Assembly: GCA_964618975.1 (NCBI GenBank)
Contig: CAZUDI010000003.1
Span: 61,962-125,961, forward strand
From: an uncultured Bacteriovoracaceae bacterium
Lineage (GTDB): Bacteria; Desulfobacterota; Desulfomonilia; UBA1062
Length of the DNA stretch: 64,000 nucleotides
Direction of reading: 5' to 3'
Positions 29,825-38,601 of the stretch are shown one piece after another (positions within the stretch are counted from its first letter, which is position 1; each line of letters begins with the position of its first letter). Below the pieces are notes generated by a model that had not been told where the DNA came from, made no database searches, and was given only the letters and a program-made list of their open reading frames with translations. Both the position numbers and the translations under genes were made by a program.

Positions 29825-30253
29825 TCAGACCCCCTTCCGCACGAGTGGCAATGCCAACCTGGCCTTCTTCCCCGAACGGTCGTAGCCGGTCTGCAGCCCG
29901 GCGAAGAAGGGCTCGAGTTGGGCGCGCACCTCGCTGAGACGCTTGGTGACCAGTTCCCTGGCCGACTCGTTCAGGCCCCTCACGCGCGTCCACGACCCCG
30001 CGAGATCCTGCTGCAGACCCCTGATCCGCTGCGCCTGGCCGCGGGAGGGTTCTCCGGCCGGGTCTGACATGCCCTCGCGGTTTTCGGCAATGGTGTGCAT
30101 CAGCCGTTGCTTTTCGGGAAGCGATTCCTCCAGTTCCTCCACATCACCGGCTAGAATATAACCCAGTTCCTCTTCGAGGCACGCTCCGAGGCGGGCGACA
30201 AGCTCCTTTTCCCTCTCAAGACAGGCTTCCATCTCCTGATACGTCATCGCCAT
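29825..30253 (-). CDS. flgN: FlgN-family flagellar export chaperone (putative)
   Basis: About 142 aa, helical, acidic. Sits directly upstream of flgK, the usual flgN position. Start at MAMTYQEME (30253). Confidence 0.5.
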   Translation of the reverse strand: MAMTYQEMEACLEREKELVARLGACLEEELGYILAGDVEELEESLPEKQRLMHTIAENREGMSDPAGEPSRGQAQRIRGLQQDLAGSWTRVRGLNESARELVTKRLSEVRAQLEPFFAGLQTGYDRSGKKARLALPLVRKGV

Positions 30254-30294
30254 TCTCCCCCCTGACGGGTATGCCGGCACCCTGGTCCCGTACA

Positions 30295-30627
30295 TCACCG
30301 CCCCTCTTTCTTATCGGTCAAGGGGACCGATGTCTGAGTGGGCGTCTCCGCTGAGATTCCCTGGATGCGGGCGATCCTCTCGTAGAGCACCTGGGCGATA
30401 CCGATGCCCTCTCCGGCCGTGGCCCCCCTGGCCATGGCCATATAGAGCAGGTCCTTGGAAATCTCCCCCGAGAGTCCCTCGCCCATGAAACCCTCACCGA
30501 CCCCGGACCCCGTGGCCTTGAGCAGCTGGTGGACGAAGATGGACTCGAATTCACGGCAGGCCTCGCGCAGCGCCCGCTCGGGATGCTGGGCCTTCATATG
30601 GTAGAGCGCCGCCACATTGCCGATCAT
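30295..30627 (-). CDS. rod-binding protein (FlgJ N-terminal-domain homologue lacking a glucosaminidase domain)
   Basis: 'ALREACREFESIFVHQLLKAT' matches the FlgJ N-terminal / rod-binding signature (PF10135). Start ATG 30627 forms an ATGA overlap with the flgI stop. About 110 aa. Confidence 0.6.
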   Translation of the reverse strand: MIGNVAALYHMKAQHPERALREACREFESIFVHQLLKATGSGVGEGFMGEGLSGEISKDLLYMAMARGATAGEGIGIAQVLYERIARIQGISAETPTQTSVPLTDKKEGR

Positions 30628-31712
30628 ATGACCTCCAGATCGGCGTACAGCGCGTCCGAACGCTTGATGCACTGCAGGATCACCACCAGGTCCCGCGGGG
30701 TCACCCCGATGGCATTGAGGGCCCCCACCAGGTCCCCGATGGTTGTGCCGTCCGGCAGCACCACGAGTCTGCGCCCCCCCTCCTCCACCGTCACCCCGCT
30801 CCCGGGGACCACGGTGGTCACCCCCTGGGAGAAGGGCTGCGGCTGAGAGACGCCAGGTTCTTCCGTGATCTTGATGCTCAGGTTGCCGTGGGCGATAGCC
30901 ACGCTGGAGATACGCACATTGTCGCCCATCACCACGGTGCCGGTACGCTCGTTCACCACCACCTTGGCCCGCGAATCGGGGTTCACATCCACCCCCTCGA
31001 TCATGGCCACGAAGTCGACAATCCGCTCATGATACGCCTCTGGCACCTGCACACGGATCGTGGAAAGGTCCTCGGCATGCGCCACGCCCTGGCCAAGCCG
31101 CTTGTTGAGCGAGCCCACGAGCCGGTGCGCCGTGGTGAAGTCCGGGATGTCCATCACGAGCCGCAGCTCATTCCCCAGGGTGAACTCCGTGGAACGTTCC
31201 ACTACCGCCCCGCGGGGAATCATTCCCACCGTGGGGAAATTCTTGGTGACGCCGCTGCCGCTCTCACCCGCAACGGCAAAGCCGCCCACGGAGATGGCGC
31301 CCTGCCCCAGGGCATACACCCGCCCGTCGGGACCGTAGAGCGGGGCCGCAATCAGCGTACCGCCCGCCAGGGACGTGGCATCCCCCAGCGAGGAGATGGT
31401 GCAGTCGAGGTATTGTCCGCTGCGGGCAAAGGGAGGCAGGATCGCCGTCACCATGACCGCGGCCACGTTCTTGACCTTGAGCGCGTTCGCATCCACGGTG
31501 ATACCCATGGTCCGCAGGAGATTGGCCAGGGAATAGACGGTGAACTGCGCGCCGGTCTTGTCGCCGGTACCGTTGAGCCCCACTACCAGCCCGTACCCGG
31601 CAAGGCGGTTCTCCCGCACGCCCTGGATCTCCACCAGGTCCTTGACCCGTACGCCGTAGGCCACGGGGGCCAAAAGCAGTATTCCCAATATGAGCAGCAG
31701 TATCTTTTTCAT
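30624..31712 (-). CDS. flgI: flagellar P-ring protein FlgI
   Basis: Signal peptide, then 'VRVKDLVEIQGVRENRLAGYGLVVGLNGTGDK', the conserved FlgI N-terminus. Confidence 0.95.
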   Translation of the reverse strand: MKKILLLILGILLLAPVAYGVRVKDLVEIQGVRENRLAGYGLVVGLNGTGDKTGAQFTVYSLANLLRTMGITVDANALKVKNVAAVMVTAILPPFARSGQYLDCTISSLGDATSLAGGTLIAAPLYGPDGRVYALGQGAISVGGFAVAGESGSGVTKNFPTVGMIPRGAVVERSTEFTLGNELRLVMDIPDFTTAHRLVGSLNKRLGQGVAHAEDLSTIRVQVPEAYHERIVDFVAMIEGVDVNPDSRAKVVVNERTGTVVMGDNVRISSVAIAHGNLSIKITEEPGVSQPQPFSQGVTTVVPGSGVTVEEGGRRLVVLPDGTTIGDLVGALNAIGVTPRDLVVILQCIKRSDALYADLEVI

Positions 31713-31720
31713 CCTTCACC

Positions 31721-32413
31721 TCAGAACGGCCAGAGCTTGTCCATGGCCCGCGACACGATACCCCTTCTCTGCTGGTCGCCGATGATACCGTTCCCATAAT
31801 AGTCAATCCTGAGATCGGCGATGGAGGTCGATGCAATGGTGTTGTTCGAGCTGACATCATCGGGCCGGATGATTCCCGAAAGCAGGATATACTGCACCTC
31901 CGAATTCACACGGATCTGTTTCTTACCCTCGATCATCAGGTTGTTTGACGGCAACACCCTGACCACGCGGGCCGAGATTGTGGCCTGGATGCTACCCTTG
32001 CGCGAGGTGTCCCCGGTGCCCTCAAACTCGCTAGAGGAAGAGGCCCCGAGAGCAGGGGTCAGGGCATAACCCTTGACGGAGGCCCTGTCGAGTGGCAGAC
32101 CCAGGAGATTGGTGATCGAGCTGTCCGCCTTATTCGTCCGCTCCGCCTTGGTTTCGGCCTCCTTGCTGGCCGACGAGTTCTCCGCGATCTGCACCACCAC
32201 GAGATCACCCACGCGGCGTGCCTTGGATTCAGCATAGATGTCCGAAAATTTGGCGCCCGGCGACCACAGGGATCCGGGTATGGCGACGCTTTCCACGCGC
32301 TCCTCCACCGGTGGCGCCAGGGTATCCACCTCCAGGCGCGGCGGCCCCTCGTGCGCACAGCCCCCCATAATCAGGGCCAGCATCACCAACATGATGCACA
32401 TGTGTCTCTGCAT
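31721..32413 (-). CDS. flgH: flagellar L-ring lipoprotein FlgH
   Basis: Lipobox 'IMGGC'; 'GSLW...GDLVVVQIAENSSASKEA' and a C-terminal 'GNGIIGDQQRRG' match FlgH. Confidence 0.9.
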   Translation of the reverse strand: MQRHMCIMLVMLALIMGGCAHEGPPRLEVDTLAPPVEERVESVAIPGSLWSPGAKFSDIYAESKARRVGDLVVVQIAENSSASKEAETKAERTNKADSSITNLLGLPLDRASVKGYALTPALGASSSSEFEGTGDTSRKGSIQATISARVVRVLPSNNLMIEGKKQIRVNSEVQYILLSGIIRPDDVSSNNTIASTSIADLRIDYYGNGIIGDQQRRGIVSRAMDKLWPF

Positions 32414-32422
32414 ATCTTCCTC

Positions 32423-33379
32423 CTAGAAAACTACCCGTACGCAGGAAGGAGCAATAATGGTGCCAAACACCTGCTTACCGGAGGTCACATTCCTCACCGG
32501 TATGCGTTGACTGAGGCCGCCGTCCCTGAGTGCCACCCCCTTGTCCCGCACCACCAGCCTGTCGCGGGAGGCCTCGATAATCACCGTCTCTCCCCGGCAC
32601 ACCACGGGCCGGGGCTCGACATTGGCCTGCAGGATGGGCGCCTCGGCGCGGATGGCCGTCTTGGCACGCATGCCCGTACAGGACGCCTTGTCGGTCATGA
32701 GGCTCTCGAGGTCGCAGACCTTCAGGGGCCGCATGACCAGGGCCGCCTCTGTGATCATCTCCCCGCGCCGGATGGGGGCACGCGCCACAGGGACCTGGGT
32801 CTCCAGCGATACCCGGGCAGAGATGCGCACACGGGTGGATGATGGTCCCTCCCCGAAGCTCAGGATCATGCTCACCGGACCCAGAAAATCCTCGCGGGGG
32901 GAAATTTTTGCCTGCGGACCCTGTCGCTCATTGCCCCACACCCTCACACTGAGCGGGGCCCTGATGTCTTCAATAACGATCCGCCCCCTGCCCGCATAGG
33001 GCTGTTCACGCATCAGCGCGCGGGTAAAGATCGTCTCCAGTTGCTCACGCACGATCTCCGTATACAACGGCGCAACCAGCACCTCGCTGGCACCTCTCAC
33101 CTGCAGGGGAAGGCTCACCTGGCGGGCAATCCTCTCCCTGATCCAGGCTGCCGATACGCTACTCCCCGCTGGGGACACGGGGGTGCGCATGAGACGTAGC
33201 GCGCTCAGGCGCTCGGCGTCATGGCCCTCGATCCGGGCCAGGTCCCCGAGCGTCACAACCGAATGAGGAATCTGAACGCGCTCTTTGAGCACCACGGTGA
33301 TGCCTGACGAGGCCAGAACAGGCCCTCCCAGCAACAGCACACTAAAAACCAAGATCAGACCGCGGCCGCTGATCTTCAT
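32423..33379 (-). CDS. flgA: flagellar basal-body P-ring formation chaperone FlgA
   Basis: Signal peptide, with a SAF/FlgA-type C-terminal domain ('GETVIIEASRDRLVVRDKGVALRDGGLSQRIPVRNVTSGKQVFGTI'). Sits upstream of flgH/flgI. Confidence 0.8.
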   Translation of the reverse strand: MKISGRGLILVFSVLLLGGPVLASSGITVVLKERVQIPHSVVTLGDLARIEGHDAERLSALRLMRTPVSPAGSSVSAAWIRERIARQVSLPLQVRGASEVLVAPLYTEIVREQLETIFTRALMREQPYAGRGRIVIEDIRAPLSVRVWGNERQGPQAKISPREDFLGPVSMILSFGEGPSSTRVRISARVSLETQVPVARAPIRRGEMITEAALVMRPLKVCDLESLMTDKASCTGMRAKTAIRAEAPILQANVEPRPVVCRGETVIIEASRDRLVVRDKGVALRDGGLSQRIPVRNVTSGKQVFGTIIAPSCVRVVF

Positions 33380-34158
33380 GACCGCAGGTTATTGGCCACC
33401 TGCAGCATGGAATCCGCCGTCTTGATGGCCTTGGAATTCAGCTCGTAGGCGCGCTGGCCGGCGATCATATTGATCATCTCCTCCACGGCGTCCACATTGG
33501 ACATCTCCAGATATCCCTGAGCGATGGTGCCCATATTCTCTGTTCCGGCCTCTCCCTGAATGGGATCGCCGGAGGCCGGGGTGGGAATATAGGCGTTGCG
33601 GCCGATGGATTTCAGCCCCGCCGGGTTGGTGAAGGTGTACAGCGAGATCTCACCGGTCGCCAGGATCTCGTCGCCCGCCGACATGCAGGTGAGGTTGCCG
33701 TCCTGATCGATATTGATGATCGCGGTGTCCGCCGGCACCGCGAAGTCCGGCTGGAGCCGGTCACCGCGTGAGTTTACGATATAGCCGTCTGAGTCAATCT
33801 TGAAGGCCCCATCGCGGGTGTAGAGCTCATCACCATCCGAAAGCAGCAGGAAGAACCCGTTGCCCTCAATGGCCAGATCCAGTTGGTTCTTGGTCTCCAT
33901 ATAGTCGCCCTGGGTAAAGATCTTCTGGACCGCCACCGGCCGGGTGCCCATGCCCACCTCGATACCCACCGGCACGGTGCCGCCCTCGGCGGTGGGGCTG
34001 CCCTTTTCGCCATAGGCTTCATAGAACAGGTCTTCGAACTCGGTGCGGCTCTTCTTGAACCCCGTCGTACTGACGTTGGCCAGATTGTTGGCCATCACAT
34101 CGATCATCATCTGCTGGGCGCCCATGCCGGACGCCGCGGTCCACATCGCTCTAATCAT
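33376..34158 (-). CDS. flgG: flagellar basal-body distal rod protein FlgG
   Basis: 260 aa. 'MIRAMWTAASGMGAQQMMIDVMANNLANVSTTGFKK' and C-terminus 'YLEMSNVDAVEEMINMIAGQRAYELNSKAIKTADSML' are canonical. Confidence 0.9.
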   Translation of the reverse strand: MIRAMWTAASGMGAQQMMIDVMANNLANVSTTGFKKSRTEFEDLFYEAYGEKGSPTAEGGTVPVGIEVGMGTRPVAVQKIFTQGDYMETKNQLDLAIEGNGFFLLLSDGDELYTRDGAFKIDSDGYIVNSRGDRLQPDFAVPADTAIINIDQDGNLTCMSAGDEILATGEISLYTFTNPAGLKSIGRNAYIPTPASGDPIQGEAGTENMGTIAQGYLEMSNVDAVEEMINMIAGQRAYELNSKAIKTADSMLQVANNLRS

Positions 34159-34181: not shown

Positions 34182-34919
34182 TTAAGCCAGCACTCCCACA
34201 TTGCGGATGGAGAGTGAGTACGTGTCTGAAAATGACTTGATCACCTTCTGGAAGGCCTCATACGCCCGCTGGGTGGTGATCAGCCCCACCATCTCCCGGA
34301 TGGGCTCCACATTGGACAGCTCGAGGCTCCCCTGCCGCACGGACAGCGCCTCCACCGGCGCGGGCACGAAACCCTCCTGCACGGCGAACATCCCATCGCC
34401 GCCCCGAATGAGGGCCTCCGGCGGGATGTCCACCACCCGCAGCACATCCACGACCCTCCCGTCGAGGACCACCGTGCCGTCGGTCTCAACGCTCACCGTG
34501 CCCCCGCCCAGGGGCAGATCCCCGCCCTCGCCCTGGACCGGGTCCCCGTGCGCATTCACGAGCACACCCTCCATGGATAGCTGGAAGGCCCCCGCACGCG
34601 TATAGCGCTCGCCGTCGAGGGTGTTTACCACAAAGAATCCCTCCCCCGTCACCGCCAGATCGAGGGGGTTAGCTGTCTCCCTCAATGGACCCGGGGTCGT
34701 ATCAATGAAGGGGCTCTCGGCGAGCACATCCACCGGTACCCGCTGGTATTGCCCGGAGGCAAGCGGGGTGGTGTCCAGCAGACGGATGTACTGCTCAAAC
34801 GCGAGGGCGTCCTTCTTGAAACCCGAGGTCCCCGCATTGGCCAGATTATGGGAGACGAGGGCCAGATTCTCCTCCATTGCCCTGGCTCCGGCAGCCGCCG
34901 TATAGATACCCTGATCCAT
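34182..34919 (-). CDS. flgF: flagellar basal-body rod protein FlgF (or second FlgG-type rod protein)
   Basis: Start at MDQGIYTAAAGARAMEENLALVSHNLANAGTSGFKK (ATG 34919) after a GGAGGA RBS. C-terminus 'LELSNVEPIREMVGLITTQRAYEAFQKVI' is the rod-protein consensus. Confidence 0.85.
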   Translation of the reverse strand: MDQGIYTAAAGARAMEENLALVSHNLANAGTSGFKKDALAFEQYIRLLDTTPLASGQYQRVPVDVLAESPFIDTTPGPLRETANPLDLAVTGEGFFVVNTLDGERYTRAGAFQLSMEGVLVNAHGDPVQGEGGDLPLGGGTVSVETDGTVVLDGRVVDVLRVVDIPPEALIRGGDGMFAVQEGFVPAPVEALSVRQGSLELSNVEPIREMVGLITTQRAYEAFQKVIKSFSDTYSLSIRNVGVLA

Positions 34920-34943
34920 GGTCGATCCTCCTGAGGCCCTCTG

Positions 34944-34959
34944 AGCAATAAGGGTGCCA
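34944..34959 (-). promoter_or_regulatory. sigma54 (-24/-12) promoter TGGCAC-N5-TTGCT upstream of flgF
   Basis: On the minus strand: TGGCAC-CCTTA-TTGCT, an exact match to the RpoN consensus TGGCAC-N5-TTGCW. It ends about 25 nt upstream of ATG 34919. Lying inside the longer annotated ORF, it supports the shorter start. Confidence 0.6.
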
Positions 34960-35157
34960 GCTACGGCAGAACCTCTTAAAGCCAGGCCCCGACACCGACA
35001 CAGCGGCAAATATTGCCCCTGGCCCGGCAGACGGTGGCCGGTCCCCCTGTCAGCGGGACCCCACAAGCGCCCGGTACGAATCTTGTGGCGGTCGACAGGC
35101 AGACCCTTTCGAACCGCAGGCAGCGGCCGGGGGCAGATCCCGGATGTATGGGGCTCT

Positions 35158-35787
35158 CTAGGAGGCGGAGTTGTGCTTGATGCGGTAGGCCAGCGAGATG
35201 AGCGAGGGGAAGAGGCTCACGTTCTCGAGGGTGATGTCGGGCGGCACACGCAGATTGATGGGGGCGAAATTCCAGATCCCCTTGATGCTGGCGTCCGCCA
35301 TGAGGTCGGCCACCTGCTGGGCCACGTCGGCCGGGGTGGTGATGATGCCGATGGTGATGCGTTCGCGCTTGATCACCTCGGGCATGCGTCCCACGGGGTA
35401 GGCGGGAACGCCGAGAATGCGCGTGTCGATCAGGTCTTCGCGCTTGTCGAAGATGGCCCTGATCACGAAGCCCTTTTCGCGGAATCCCGGATAGCGCAAG
35501 AGGGCAAAACCCAGGCTGCCGAGCCCCACGAGCGCCATGTTGGCGCCGGACGAGATCCCCAGCACCTCTTCCAGGATGGCCTTGAAGCTCGCTGTGCTGT
35601 AGCCGAAGGACGAGCTGTGGATCTTACCCAGATATTGGATATCCTGCCGGATGGTGGAGGGTGTGAGACCCAGGGACGAGGCGATCATGTTGGAGGAGAT
35701 CCACTTGCTGCCCTGCGCCTCCATATGGGCGATATATTCATAGTACAGGGGCAGGCGCGCAGAAACCGCCAGGGGGATCTTGAGCAT
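35158..35787 (-). CDS. rex: redox-sensing transcriptional repressor Rex
   Basis: 'LPLYYEYIAHMEAQGSKWISSNMIASSLGLTPSTIRQDIQYLG' (winged helix) plus a Rossmann fold 'MALVGLGSLGFALL' with the GxGxxG NADH site. Confidence 0.9.
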   Translation of the reverse strand: MLKIPLAVSARLPLYYEYIAHMEAQGSKWISSNMIASSLGLTPSTIRQDIQYLGKIHSSSFGYSTASFKAILEEVLGISSGANMALVGLGSLGFALLRYPGFREKGFVIRAIFDKREDLIDTRILGVPAYPVGRMPEVIKRERITIGIITTPADVAQQVADLMADASIKGIWNFAPINLRVPPDITLENVSLFPSLISLAYRIKHNSAS

Positions 35788-35924
35788 GGACCCTCTTCCT
35801 TATGATAATCTATTATTTAACATATAAATCAAAATAGCTTTCTTTCTGTGTATTGTCAACTATAGATATCAGGTACCTATATCATTCGAAGGCTATATAT
35901 TCTCCATTCCATGGACCCTTCGCC

Positions 35925-35942
35925 TTGTTAATTTTATGACAA
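35925..35942. promoter_or_regulatory. candidate Rex operator (imperfect inverted repeat TTGTTAATTTTATGACAA)
   Basis: 14-15 of 18 positions match the Rex consensus TTGTGAAnnnnTTCACAA. It lies in the rex / flgM divergent intergenic region, where autoregulation would be expected. Confidence 0.3.
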
Positions 35943-35978
35943 TTTCCGGTACGCCCCCCCACTTCAATCGAATAACGT

Positions 35979-36005
35979 TAAAGCTTTTTCCCTGACAACC
36001 GATAG
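35979..36005 (+). promoter_or_regulatory. sigma28 (FliA)-type promoter TAAA-N15-aCCGATAG upstream of the small ORF-flgM pair
   Basis: TAAA at 35979-35982, 15-nt spacer, ACCGATAG at 35998-36005, against the consensus TAAA-N15-GCCGATAA. flgM is classically sigma28-dependent. Confidence 0.5.
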
Positions 36006-36042
36006 ATCTGTAGTGGCTTTCAAAAAAGATAAGGAGTGCGTA

Positions 36043-36246
36043 ATGGAGGTCAAAAGCATCTTCGTCAACACCATCATGCGCAGCTACGAGCAATCGGTAC
36101 GACCGGGCGCAGCCAGAAAAGACCCTGACGATACGCACGATACGGTAAACATCTCATCCCGCGCAGGCCAACGCCTCTTCGGAGAGATGATGGAACACAG
36201 CCTGACCAAATCCCTGAACAAGGACCACCACCATGAAGGTGACTAA
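36043..36246 (+). CDS. small hypothetical protein (67 aa), translationally coupled to flgM
   Basis: AAGGAG RBS sits 6 nt before ATG 36043. The stop TAA at 36244-36246 overlaps the flgM ATG (36233). No family recognised. Confidence 0.45.
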   Translation: MEVKSIFVNTIMRSYEQSVRPGAARKDPDDTHDTVNISSRAGQRLFGEMMEHSLTKSLNKDHHHEGD

Positions 36247-36538
36247 TACCCCCCCCTCGGAACTCATCAAGGCCTATCAGTCGCACGCCTCCAACGGGGT
36301 CGAGCCCACACGCCATGAAGCCCGCGCCGGCACCTCAACCCCGCTCAGAGACACGGTGAGGATGTCCGAGAAGGCCGCCCTCTTCCAGGACATCCAGAAG
36401 GGGGTGGCTTCCGCCTCCGAGGTGCGCCCCGACAAGGTGCAGGAGGCCCAGAGACAGCTCCAGGCAGGCAACTACCAGGCGGATTACACACAGGTTGCCG
36501 ACAAACTTATCCATCCGGACCTCAGCGCGCGGATATAG
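36233..36538 (+). CDS. flgM: anti-sigma-28 factor FlgM
   Basis: C-terminus 'DKVQEAQRQLQAGNYQADYTQVADKLI' is the FlgM sigma28-binding helix signature. 101 aa. Confidence 0.8.
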   Translation: MKVTNTPPSELIKAYQSHASNGVEPTRHEARAGTSTPLRDTVRMSEKAALFQDIQKGVASASEVRPDKVQEAQRQLQAGNYQADYTQVADKLIHPDLSARI

Positions 36539-37703
36539 TCCTCCCGGCCTTATACGATCCCACATACCCAGTCCGGCGTGAACGCTGTTCCATTACGTGC
36601 ACATAGCGGAAGAACTCCCCGTCCTCACACGCGACCAGCATGCCCGAGAGATATTCATTGCCCATGACCGCCGCCAGGGCCTCGGCGAGCGGCTCACCCT
36701 CCCTGGTCAGGGCCAGGGCGTCCAGCACAAGCAGATAGGCATCCGCCGCCAGGGCAGCCCCCGTCGAGATCCTTCCCTCCCGGTGTGCATATTGCGCGAG
36801 ATAGGTCTGCGCCCTCTGCGATGTGGCCTGCGCGGCATAAAAGTCAGTGATGACGTAGCGGTGCGCCTTTTTGGGCACACCCTGGCGCAGGGCGCCAGAA
36901 GCGCTGTCCCCGCCGCAGAGGATGAGGGGGGTTTCGATGGCCAGTTCCAGGGCACTCCTCAGGGGTGCGAGGCTCCCCCCCCCGGGGGCGAAGATCACAT
37001 CCACACGCCCCGCCGCCAGAGACGCGGCCAGGGCCTCGGCCTCGCCGGAGGCGTCTCCCAGAAAGGCCATGCGTTCAATGGCGCCGCCCTGGTTGATGAA
37101 CAGGGCCGAGAACATGCTCGCCAGGCGCACCGACGCACTGTCCTGAGGGTCCACCACCACCACCGCGGTGAATGCGCCCAGTCGGTCGCGGGCAAGACGG
37201 GTAGCGGCCCAGGCCCGGTGTTTGAGTGATGATCCTAGACGCCACAGGTTTGCGGTGCCCCCCCTGACCAGGGGAACCTGGGCCGTTGTCACCAGCAGAG
37301 GCACAGGGTGCGCCTGCAGGAGGGGCTGCGCCGCCCGGACCTCGGCCTCACTCACCCCTCCGATGAGCGCCACGATCCCTTTCTGGGCGAAGAGATCGGC
37401 GAGGGCCTCGCCGGTGCCGGTGGCGTCCCCCCGGGTGTCGCGCAGTACCAGTTCCACGCGATGTGAGCGCACGGTGGGCCAGAGGGTATTCGCCAGGCAC
37501 AGGGCCTGCCACTGCTCTTCACCCTGGGCCTTGAGGTCACCGCTCATGGGCAGGCACACCCCGATCCGTAGGGGCTCGGCCTCAGGATCGGCCGTGGGTG
37601 GCAGCGGCAGATCCTTCTCGAAGCAGCCCCAGACCATGACGAGCAACGCCACGAGCAGCGCCACGAGTTTCGACTTGTCGGCAATGGGATTCATGCCCCC
37701 CAT
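36522..37703 (-). CDS. periplasmic substrate-binding lipoprotein (type-1 PBP, Leu/Ile/Val-binding-like family)
   Basis: Start around 'MGGMNPIADKSKLVALLVALLVMVWGC' (lipobox). 'RIGVCLPMSGDLKAQGEE' and 'VALIGGVSEAEV' are typical of PBP-1. No ABC permease or ATPase genes are adjacent. Confidence 0.6.
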   Translation of the reverse strand: MGGMNPIADKSKLVALLVALLVMVWGCFEKDLPLPPTADPEAEPLRIGVCLPMSGDLKAQGEEQWQALCLANTLWPTVRSHRVELVLRDTRGDATGTGEALADLFAQKGIVALIGGVSEAEVRAAQPLLQAHPVPLLVTTAQVPLVRGGTANLWRLGSSLKHRAWAATRLARDRLGAFTAVVVVDPQDSASVRLASMFSALFINQGGAIERMAFLGDASGEAEALAASLAAGRVDVIFAPGGGSLAPLRSALELAIETPLILCGGDSASGALRQGVPKKAHRYVITDFYAAQATSQRAQTYLAQYAHREGRISTGAALAADAYLLVLDALALTREGEPLAEALAAVMGNEYLSGMLVACEDGEFFRYVHVMEQRSRRTGYVGSYKAGRTISAR

Positions 37704-37857
37704 CTCTACCCGCAAAGGACTCCTCCTGTCCAGCCCTATGGCGCCCGGCTGGCCTTGAGGTCGCCCCACAAGCCCCCGACAGAAGAGGGCCGAGCGGTCT
37801 TGTTCAATGGCACACTTTGTGGTAAAGGGACTTTCCCAATAATCGTGGAGGTGCGCA

Positions 37858-38601
37858 TTGCCAGGCATTCAGGTCGCAGGACACAGGTACGAGACCGACC
37901 TCGTCATCTTTGACAAGGACGGCACCTTGCTGGATTTCCGCGAAACATGGATCGATATCATCCAGGAGCTGATCGCCGCCATCTCTCGGCGCACCCCGGT
38001 CAGCCAGGCCCTTGCGCTGCGCATCCAGAAGGACCTGGGCCTCTCGCTTAAGGCGCGGTCTATCGACGGATGCGGCCCTCTGGCCATGGGGAGTGCAGCC
38101 GAATGCGAGGCCGTGCTCAGCGCCTGCCTCTACCGCGAGGGGTTGCGCTGGGATCAGGCCCTGGCGGTCATTCAGGCCTCCGAGGATGAGGTCTTCGGGG
38201 GCGAATTGCGCGCCTCCCGGCTCAGACCCGCCCACGGTGCCTTGGAACTTCTCAAGATCCTGAAATCCCGCAACATCGCCGTGGCCGTGGCCACCAATGA
38301 CAATGCCGCCGAGGCCCAGAGGGACATGCTGGGTATCGGGGCCAGTGCCTACATCGATCTCGTGGTGGGGGCCGACAGCGTCCCGCGGCCCAAGCCCGCC
38401 CCCGACATGGTCCATCTGATCTGTGAACGGATTGGGGCTTTGCCTCAGCGATCGGTCTTCGTCGGTGACACCATCATGGACGCCCTCACGGGCAGGAATG
38501 CCGGCGTTAGTCTCACGATCGGCGTGAGCGGCATCGTTCCGGCCGAGGTCCTGCGCGAGCACAGCGACGTGGTCATCTCCAGCCTGAGCGACATCGGCTA
38601 A
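37858..38601 (+). CDS. HAD-superfamily hydrolase (phosphatase)
   Basis: Motif I 'LVIFDKDGTLLD', motif III with K, and motif IV 'VFVGDTIMDALTGRNAG'. TTG start with a GGAGGTG RBS. Confidence 0.75.
   Translation: MPGIQVAGHRYETDLVIFDKDGTLLDFRETWIDIIQELIAAISRRTPVSQALALRIQKDLGLSLKARSIDGCGPLAMGSAAECEAVLSACLYREGLRWDQALAVIQASEDEVFGGELRASRLRPAHGALELLKILKSRNIAVAVATNDNAAEAQRDMLGIGASAYIDLVVGADSVPRPKPAPDMVHLICERIGALPQRSVFVGDTIMDALTGRNAGVSLTIGVSGIVPAEVLREHSDVVISSLSDIG

Follow-up and report, generated by a model that had tools for sequence, protein, structure and literature searches.

A rex gene with candidate Rex operators between two flagellar promoters: a likely clade-specific insertion next to a small protein akin to the N-terminal half of FlgM

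Why should the gene of a redox sensor stand between two promoters of the flagellar hierarchy? The question is raised by a stretch of 64,000 nucleotides (nt) from an uncultured Bacteriovoracaceae bacterium (contig CAZUDI010000003.1, positions 61,962 to 125,961; the window in what follows). In this window rex, the gene of the repressor Rex that senses NADH/NAD+, is divergent from a small open reading frame (ORF) coupled to flgM, and it lies upstream of an operon for the flagellar rod and rings. The initial annotation of the window, made from its letters alone, had seen in this layout a possible redox input into flagellar gene control. Comparison with some 20 related loci (labelled L005 and so on) leads us to a different answer. 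The locus would be a composite, with an ancestral flagellar unit and an inserted rex unit in which Rex regulates its own synthesis, a reading to which we give a probability of about 0.6. Pfam and NCBIfam matches, together with the coordinates, bear out the gene identities and the divergent layout first proposed, and the motifs quoted with them are all in place. The start sites of rex and of the sigma28 promoter were all placed from consensus motifs. The elements that the argument needs are as follows.

34944-34959, minus strand: sigma54 promoter of the flgFGAHI operon, TGGCACCCTTATTGCT, an exact TGGCAC-N5-TTGCT, 24 nt before the flgF ATG at 34919
35005-35017: palindrome GGCAAATATTGCC, of the form GGnAA-N3-5-TTnCC, upstream of the flgF sigma54 promoter
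35158-35787, minus strand: rex, 209 amino acids
35788-36042: intergenic region between rex and the small ORF, 255 base pairs (bp)
35806-35823: box 2, the proximal Rex-like box, over the predicted rex start and 5' untranslated region; in the window only the half-site ATGTTAA (minus strand) is good
35831-35859, minus strand: predicted sigma70-type rex promoter, TTGACA-17-TATTTT, with a start expected near 35824
35925-35942: box 1, the distal box, a predicted Rex-type inverted repeat of 18 bp, TTGTTAATTTTATGACAA
35979-36005, plus strand: sigma28 (FliA)-type promoter TAAA-N15-ACCGATAG (TAAAG-N15-CCGATAG), upstream of the small ORF and flgM
36043-36246, plus strand: small ORF, 67 amino acids, with an AAGGAG ribosome-binding site at 36031-36036
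36233-36538, plus strand: flgM, coding for the anti-sigma28 factor, 101 amino acids

The history of the site is told by its relatives. The gene order PBP (periplasmic binding protein)-flgM-small ORF / rex-flgF-flgG-flgA-flgH is kept in all loci with a Rex at least 64% identical to that of the window (L005-L010, L094-L097, L098-L106 and L109), as far as the contigs reach, and this order with rex was seen in L005-L010, L094-L097, L099 and L101-L106. A set of Desulfomonilia loci has no rex there. In L085-L090, flgF is divergent from small ORF-flgM with the same sigma54 and sigma28 promoters; around three distant Desulfomonilia members of the small-ORF family (P0052, P0047 and P0072) the order flgN-flgJ-flgI-flgH-flgA-flgG-flgF is divergent from small ORF-flgM, with no rex between. 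The intergenic regions devoid of rex are 234-256 bp long; they display TAAAG-N15-CCGATAA before the small ORF, and TGGCAC-N5-TTGCT with a GGnAA-N3-5-TTnCC palindrome before flgF. Where rex is present, the short spacer between rex and flgF still has the sigma54 promoter and the palindrome, and the small ORF still has the sigma28 promoter before it. As for Rex relatives at 57-58% identity (L011, L107, L108), in genomes of the Desulfomonilia type, their genes are found elsewhere in the genome, adjoining cytochrome c assembly genes and recC in L011 and without flagellar neighbours in L107 and L108. Because the rex-less Desulfomonilia relatives have the same sigma54/sigma28 flagellar arrangement, rex is best seen as an insertion. 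The parsimonious history would be that rex entered once, together with the region upstream of it, between two divergent flagellar promoters; among the sequences compared, rex at this site is restricted to one clade of Desulfomonilia-related Thermodesulfobacteriota. The ancestral unit, as comparison shows it, would thus comprise a sigma54 promoter and its palindrome reading into flgF-flgG-flgA-flgH-flgI and genes beyond, with a divergent sigma28 promoter reading into small ORF-flgM, and the rex unit would have brought a sigma70-type promoter and two Rex-type operators.

Of these two putative operators, the distal one had already been singled out as an imperfect Rex-type repeat, and it is a real, conserved element. 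Two consensus forms were scored, with up to four mismatches allowed over the full 64-kb window: box 1 has three mismatches to TTGTGAA-N4-TTCACAA and two to TTGTTAA-N4-TTAACAA, the latter being the type given for Clostridiaceae and Thermoanaerobacter Rex (PMC8457756, PMC4600107 and PMC5886521). It is the single match of the window at three mismatches or fewer to either form, and at up to four mismatches no other intergenic candidate appeared in the 64 kb, the region upstream of the ATP synthase a-subunit gene included. Dinucleotide-preserving shuffles of each intergenic region gave P=0.005 (0.5%) for the window, 0.0085 for L005, 0.016 for L007 and 0.01 for L008; L006, L009 and L010 came out weaker. 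When the intergenic DNA was aligned with MAFFT, box 1, with consensus yGTTAATTTTATnACA, stood out as one of four blocks that are conserved where the rest of the DNA cannot be aligned, and it occupies the homologous position in at least ten distinct sequences, metagenome loci included. Three rex-less intergenic regions had no Rex box match at three mismatches or fewer. By its sequence match, box 1 is a conserved candidate Rex operator. An imperfect local duplication was also detected here in the window, between 35785-35809 and 35910-35943: the rex start codon and ribosome-binding region (CATGGACCCTCTTCCTT...TTATGATAAT) recurs beside and within box 1 (CATGGACCCTTCGCCTT...TTATGACAAT), and this second copy makes an 11-codon mini-ORF on the minus strand.

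The proximal box lies at the predicted rex promoter. TTGACA-17-TATTTT is the best promoter-like site of the region, matched at 10 of 12 positions, and TTGACA or a one-base variant of it is found at the same -35 position in all rex-containing loci. Box 2 is an aligned conserved block that spans the predicted +1 to +18 of this promoter; at the homologous position L006-L009, L102, L103, L104 and L106 have a site with two to three mismatches to TTGTKAA-N4-TTMACAA (ATGTTAAAAAATAAACAA in L008, for example). Between the centres of the two boxes there are 118-119 bp in four lineages, and one lineage each has 108 bp and 133 bp. A box placed on the transcription start is in the classic position of a repressor. 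In Streptomyces, Rex autoregulates via an operator at its own promoter (PMC5355995).

The protein itself is recognized as a Rex. Its winged helix and Rossmann domains are both present (PF06971, 57 bits; PF02629, 63 bits), it scores 196.4 bits against the NCBIfam equivalog NF003994 (cutoff 130), its Rossmann motif GLGSLG is at residues 88-93, and it matches the solved Rex proteins 3WG9, 2VT2, 3IKT and 1XCB over its full length (E=1e-33 to 1e-40). The closest structure is that of Thermoanaerobacter Rex, 3WG9, at 140 bits. In the recognition helix, LTPSTIRQDI, the motif IRQD is common to the window protein and to Thermoanaerobacter Rex; its counterpart is RKD in Thermus Rex and RRD in Bacillus Rex. 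Thermoanaerobacter Rex binds ATTGTTA-N6-TAACAAT (PMC5886521), and an IRQD helix would fit a site of the TTGTTA type, if these residues are indeed what sets base specificity. The wing (residues 53-63) reads G-K-I-H-S-S-S-F-G-Y in the clade and G-x-x-G-x-x-G-x-G-Y in solved Rex proteins; the replacement of two glycines and of the basic residue could alter the way in which Rex reads the AT-rich spacer. The nearest Rex proteins, at 64-72% identity, come from metagenome-assembled genomes (MAGs) labelled Deltaproteobacteria, Syntrophaceae or Thermodesulfobacteriota, and those of Desulfomonilia come next, at 56-58%. The window sequence itself was assembled in several samples from one series of metagenomes.

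Which promoter, then, does box 1 serve? In the window it is upstream of both predicted starts, by some 100 bp for rex and by some 80 bp for sigma28 (across loci, its centre stands approximately 65-86 bp before the sigma28 start), and it overlaps neither promoter; sequence inspection and a scan of both strands found no convincing or conserved promoter over it. Measured from its centre, the rex -35 is at about 80.5 bp in eight loci, at 70.5 bp in three and at about 94 bp in two, and the sigma28 -10 is at 51.5-53.5 bp in eight, at 60.5 bp in one, at 65.5 bp in three and at 72.5 bp in one. Each spacing thus shows partial conservation, in spacers that are unalignable, and the consequence is that spacing alone cannot assign the box: across the wider set of loci the distances on the sigma28 side are clustered too, which removes the case for an assignment to the rex promoter on this ground. 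What favours rex is that the box co-occurs with it, that it pairs with box 2 on the predicted rex start, and that the sigma28 promoter is unchanged in relatives that have neither rex nor box. Autoregulation of rex thus appears to be the best and simplest reading of the two boxes. As family knowledge would have it, at low NADH/NAD+ Rex would bind them and repress its own transcription, and NADH would release Rex from them; speculatively, the two boxes might act cooperatively.

The other side of the intergenic region is a flagellar matter. FlgM is recognized by PF04316 (49.3 bits, cutoff 25) and TIGR03824 (48.6 bits, cutoff 40.75), and the FlgM profile of the clade matches the solved FlgM chains 9wsf_B (E=8e-12) and 1rp3_B. 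The FliA-type promoter reported upstream is there, with two mismatches to the TAAA-N15-GCCGATAA consensus in the window, and every locus examined, whether it has rex or not, keeps a predicted sigma28-type promoter TAAAG-N15-CCGATA 37-44 nt before the ATG of the small ORF; in the window this promoter would start transcription near 36012-36014. The distance from rex to the small ORF is 255 bp (35788-36042) and not the 225 bp initially given, a figure that corresponds to a mechanical ORF of 77 amino acids beginning with a GTG at 36013. This longer ORF was rejected since every homologue starts with MEVKSI, that is, at the ATG at 36043. The stop of the small ORF does overlap the start of flgM, as had been noticed, and the overlap is 14 nt; in loci where both starts are clear, the stop falls between -17 and +4 nt from the flgM start. 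As expected for the family, sigma28 would drive the translationally coupled small ORF and flgM as the usual FliA-FlgM feedback loop, a loop that would run without Rex in relatives with no rex at the site.

The small ORF is the most original component of the locus. A search with its single sequence retrieved only itself. With a profile of seven syntenic homologues, 72 clusters (at 90% identity) came up, of 58-113 amino acids, all labelled hypothetical, the named ones all from metagenome bins of Deltaproteobacteria, Desulfomonilia or Thermodesulfobacteriota; an exhaustive HMMER profile search of 1.84 billion representatives gave only 19 relatives. No match was found in Pfam (48 members, E<=10) or NCBIfam, nor a meaningful profile match in the PDB. 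The 48 family members are 34-60% identical to the window protein, and their invariant residues are written with changing codons, Arg by six, Ser by four and Leu by four. By these signs the small ORF is a genuine, purifying-selected, lineage-restricted protein family. Whether it is conserved with flgM in relatives had been left as a point to check in the initial annotation; it is, and the objection of a lack of conservation falls.

What the small protein resembles is the first half of FlgM. AlphaFold2 predicts helices at residues 3-19 and 39-60 (the second with a predicted local distance difference score, pLDDT, of about 90) and a low-confidence linker between them. With hhalign, residues 11-52 are colinear with FlgM 11-57, at P=1.2e-4 with seven-sequence profiles, and at P=4e-5 with 48 sequences against 11. 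The score, 29.1, compares with 10.4 +/- 2.4 (maximum 22.5) in 200 column-shuffled FlgM controls, none of which reached it, and with 11 for the reversed alignment. The motifs I-x-K-A-Y-[EQ] and D-x-V-x-I-S-x-x-A-x-x-L-F (the latter in the first helix) are common to both proteins; in the small ORF the N-terminal one reads I-x-K-x-Y-E. In Salmonella and Bacillus, the N-terminal half of FlgM holds an export signal and the first helix of the sigma28-binding region, and the C-terminal part carries the main sigma28-binding helices, as known from the FlgM-sigma28 complex. The small ORF is without the C-terminal part of the Pfam FlgM domain, and by curated criteria it is not a member of the FlgM family; on the profile alignment, it would be best described as a truncated paralogue of the N-terminal half of FlgM.

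The idea that this protein is a partner of FlgM, put forward with the first description of the pair, gains support from its strict coupling to flgM, from a fusion protein and from the N-terminal homology; the function itself is our extrapolation. Made together with FlgM, the small protein would, speculatively, act in the checkpoint of FlgM secretion and sigma28 release, where it could be a co-exported substrate, a competitor at the export gate or a direct binder of FlgM or sigma28. The fusion is P0080 (L093, 498-941), 147 amino acids long, with small ORF and FlgM in frame on a single metagenomic contig of 1.3 kb; it is either a natural fusion that supports a functional link or a one-base assembly error. 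In L094 (3688-3948), which belongs to a subclade without Rex boxes, FlgM is called at 67 amino acids (86 from an upstream ATG) and is without the N-terminal I-K-A-Y motif, and the small ORF is intact, a hint that the small protein might take over the N-terminal function in trans. A remote member, P0082 (E=6e-4; L091/L092, 4001-4198), is found in another lineage, overlapping the start of a response-regulator/GAF/HD-GYP gene, with genes for PilZ, a sigma54 activator, MotA and flagellin glycosylation as neighbours: a motility setting, without flgM.

To be sure, a number of results weigh against the account given so far, of an inserted, self-regulating rex beside a FlgM-derived small protein. A single match such as box 1 is not exceptional for the window as a whole, 0.16-0.69 being expected and 15-57% of the shuffles having at least one. 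In the window, box 2 is no more than a half-site. Box 1, the best-conserved of the two, overlaps no promoter, and its spacing from the sigma28 -10 is clustered by lineage, which makes a role at the sigma28 promoter possible. To our knowledge there is no precedent for cooperative or looped binding by Rex dimers. Characterized Rex operators lie within or just 3' of promoters (PMC5355995). Loci L094-L096, a rex-containing subclade that keeps both promoters, have no Rex box: this subclade has apparently lost its boxes, and as it carries rex without them, autoregulation is not universal in the clade. As for the small protein, the HMMER profile search of 1.84 billion representatives retrieved no FlgM, 48 members had no match to PF04316 at E<=10, and the homology comes from profile-profile comparison alone, in one alignment, with a probability of 70%.

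How do other explanations fare against the same facts? The one closest to the initial annotation holds that Rex on box 1 modulates the sigma28 promoter of small ORF-flgM, with possible read-through from rex into flgF, and that NADH/NAD+ would feed both the FliA-FlgM checkpoint and rod synthesis. This is unlikely in our view, and yet it draws on real features of the locus. Box 1 is placed between two divergent promoters; its distances to the sigma28 -10 fall into classes of 51.5-53.5 bp (L005, L009 and L099 lineages) and 65.5 bp (window and L007 lineages), about one helical turn apart, in spacers that are unalignable; the position of rex in the flagellar locus is retained down to about 36-41% FlgM identity; no intrinsic terminator separates rex from flgF in a simple scan; and, a weak point, no second rex turned up in the same MAGs. 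However, with its centre 65-86 bp or so upstream of the predicted sigma28 start, box 1 is beyond the footprint of RNA polymerase, and Rex is known as a steric repressor (PMC5355995). The rex-less relatives have the same sigma28 promoter without a box, and L094-L096 retain rex and both promoters with the box lost. Conserved adjacency is not specific evidence either, since the neighbouring PBP, HAD hydrolase and lysS genes are equally syntenic. Furthermore, flgF has its own sigma54 promoter and palindrome in every locus, no Rex box is found at the other flagellar promoters of the window, and the literature searched gave no link between Rex and flgM. Redox input into flagellar control is thus not supported beyond adjacency, as rex is a clade-specific insertion and the box tracks rex and stands off both promoters; redox control of flgM is possible but unsupported. 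More ambitious still, and for us quite unlikely, would be a Rex recruited to the flagellar hierarchy, with the distal box tuning sigma28-dependent flgM and its partner by NADH/NAD+, read-through tuning the rod operon, and the small protein joining the secretion checkpoint of FlgM as a component not described before, for example as a FlgM-derived decoy or co-substrate that is competent for export.

The inverted repeat could also be the operator of another regulator, of the CRP/FNR family for example, its adjacency to rex being coincidental. Its core, TGTTA-N6-TGACA, resembles TGTGA-N6-TCACA, a CRP-like core that the Rex consensus itself includes; the right half of the L005 box is a perfect TCACA; and a position at about -65 to -86 from the predicted sigma28 start resembles that of class I activator sites. 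Yet what is conserved includes the GTTAA / ACA pattern of the 18-bp Rex site as well as its outermost T and A. The box accompanies rex and is not seen in rex-less loci, another box much like it sits at the predicted rex start, and the recognition helix is like that of the Rex binding TTGTTA-type sites (PMC5886521). All of this makes the explanation improbable. Finally, the box might be a chance palindrome in AT-rich DNA, and the small ORF a spurious or leader ORF without protein function. The lack of significance of a single match over the window, quoted above, speaks for chance, as does the fact that the intergenic region is the most AT-rich part of the window. This view is largely refuted, and has very little left to commend it: P is 0.005 in composition-matched shuffles of the intergenic DNA, and the box stays aligned across lineages whose flanks do not align. 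In the small ORF, codons turn over synonymously under purifying selection on the protein, the AAGGAG-type ribosome-binding site is conserved, there are 72 homologous clusters, and the model has a confident helix.

Around these elements the flagellar cluster extends from 31.7 to 36.5 kb, with the operon downstream of rex made of the following genes.

34182-34919, minus strand: flgF, first gene of the rod/ring operon (TIGR02490, 181.5 bits)
33376-34158, minus strand: flgG (Pfam match)
32423-33379, minus strand: flgA (Pfam match)
31721-32413, minus strand: flgH (Pfam match)

Further downstream on the minus strand come flgI and flgK (Pfam matches). By their position and by the gene order of relatives, the two ORFs between them, 30295-30672 and 29825-30298, are presumably flgJ-like (rod-binding) and flgN. 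As had been stated, rex sits upstream of a sigma54-driven rod operon, and the promoter that precedes flgF fits TGGCAC-N5-TTGCW exactly at -24/-12; in every locus it keeps a distance of 23-29 nt to the flgF ATG, whether rex is there or not. The GGnAA-N3-5-TTnCC palindrome, some 45-60 bp upstream of it, is likewise present in every locus irrespective of rex (L005-L010, L085-L097), and GGCAAATATTGCC is probably the binding site of a flagellar enhancer-binding protein. A second exact sigma54 motif, TGGCACCATTATTGCT (32450-32465, minus strand), lies within the 3' end of flgA, 37 nt before the flgH ATG, and may be an internal promoter for flgH-flgI and the genes downstream. At the other end, the last 17 nt of flgM (36522-36538) overlap the convergent periplasmic-binding-protein gene (36522-37715 or 36522-37868, minus strand), and the simple terminator scan found none between the two. 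Nor did it find an intrinsic terminator between rex and flgF, which does not by itself prove read-through. The single terminator-like site of the scan falls in the overlap of small ORF and flgM, on the opposite strand, and is probably due to chance. The 255-bp intergenic region has a GC content of about 34-40%, in a window of about 63%; an Rfam scan of 34800-36700 at E<=1 returned nothing, and the AT-rich spacer is without a match to a known RNA element.

What is new in all this has to be separated from what is not. Autoregulation of Rex and the feedback loop of a sigma28-driven flgM are already well described. New are a small protein family akin to the N-terminal half of FlgM and coupled to flgM, and the stable placement of rex, coding for a global redox sensor, between two flagellar promoters. 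If the small protein does act in FlgM export or sigma28 release, it would add a component to one of the best-studied checkpoints of bacteria, and it would be a natural experiment separating the N-terminal half of FlgM, with its reported export signal, from the anti-sigma half. The position of rex allows one to ask about an energy-state input into flagellar control with a single fragment of 255 bp. The organisms are uncultured, and practical impact is limited for now.

Set against known systems, the rex side of the locus is most like rex-hemACD of Streptomyces coelicolor and S. avermitilis, with a Rex made of a winged helix and a Rossmann domain, an 18-bp repeat of the TTGT-A-N-ACAA type upstream of rex, and an expected logic of self-repression relieved by NADH (PMC5355995). 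The window differs in its operator, which is of the TTGTTAA-N4-TTAACAA type of Clostridia and Thermoanaerobacter (PMC8457756, PMC5886521) and not of the TTGTGAA type. It also differs in having two boxes about 119 bp apart, with the better-conserved one about 100 bp upstream of the predicted start and not over the -35, and in having rex in a flagellar cluster and not co-transcribed with metabolic genes. The other side recalls the class 3 flgM of Salmonella and Escherichia coli, where flgM stands behind a promoter of the TAAA-N15-GCCGATAA type, divergent from a flagellar structural operon, in a negative feedback on sigma28. In the window, by contrast, flgM comes second, behind a FlgM-N-like small ORF to which it is translationally coupled; flgN, from its presumed position, belongs to the rod and hook-associated operon and does not follow flgM; and the divergent operon begins with flgF under sigma54, instead of flgA or flgB under FlhDC. 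With the FlgM family itself (PF04316/TIGR03824), the small protein shares the N-terminal x-x-Y-[EQ]-K, the D-x-V-x-[IL]-S-x-x-A-x-x-[LF] with which the FlgM domain starts and, in its predicted model, helices and a flexible linker, and it is without the C-terminal 45 or so residues (G-x-Y...IA-x-KLL). Other arrangements around flgM exist in bacteria. Helicobacter pylori has a short FlgM without the N-terminal half, and in Bacillus subtilis a small gene, yvyF, precedes flgM in the operon. The small ORF shows no similarity to the zinc-ribbon proteins of the YvyF type (no NCBIfam or Pfam match), and where H. pylori lacks the N-terminal half of FlgM, the window would have an extra copy of that half as a separate protein.

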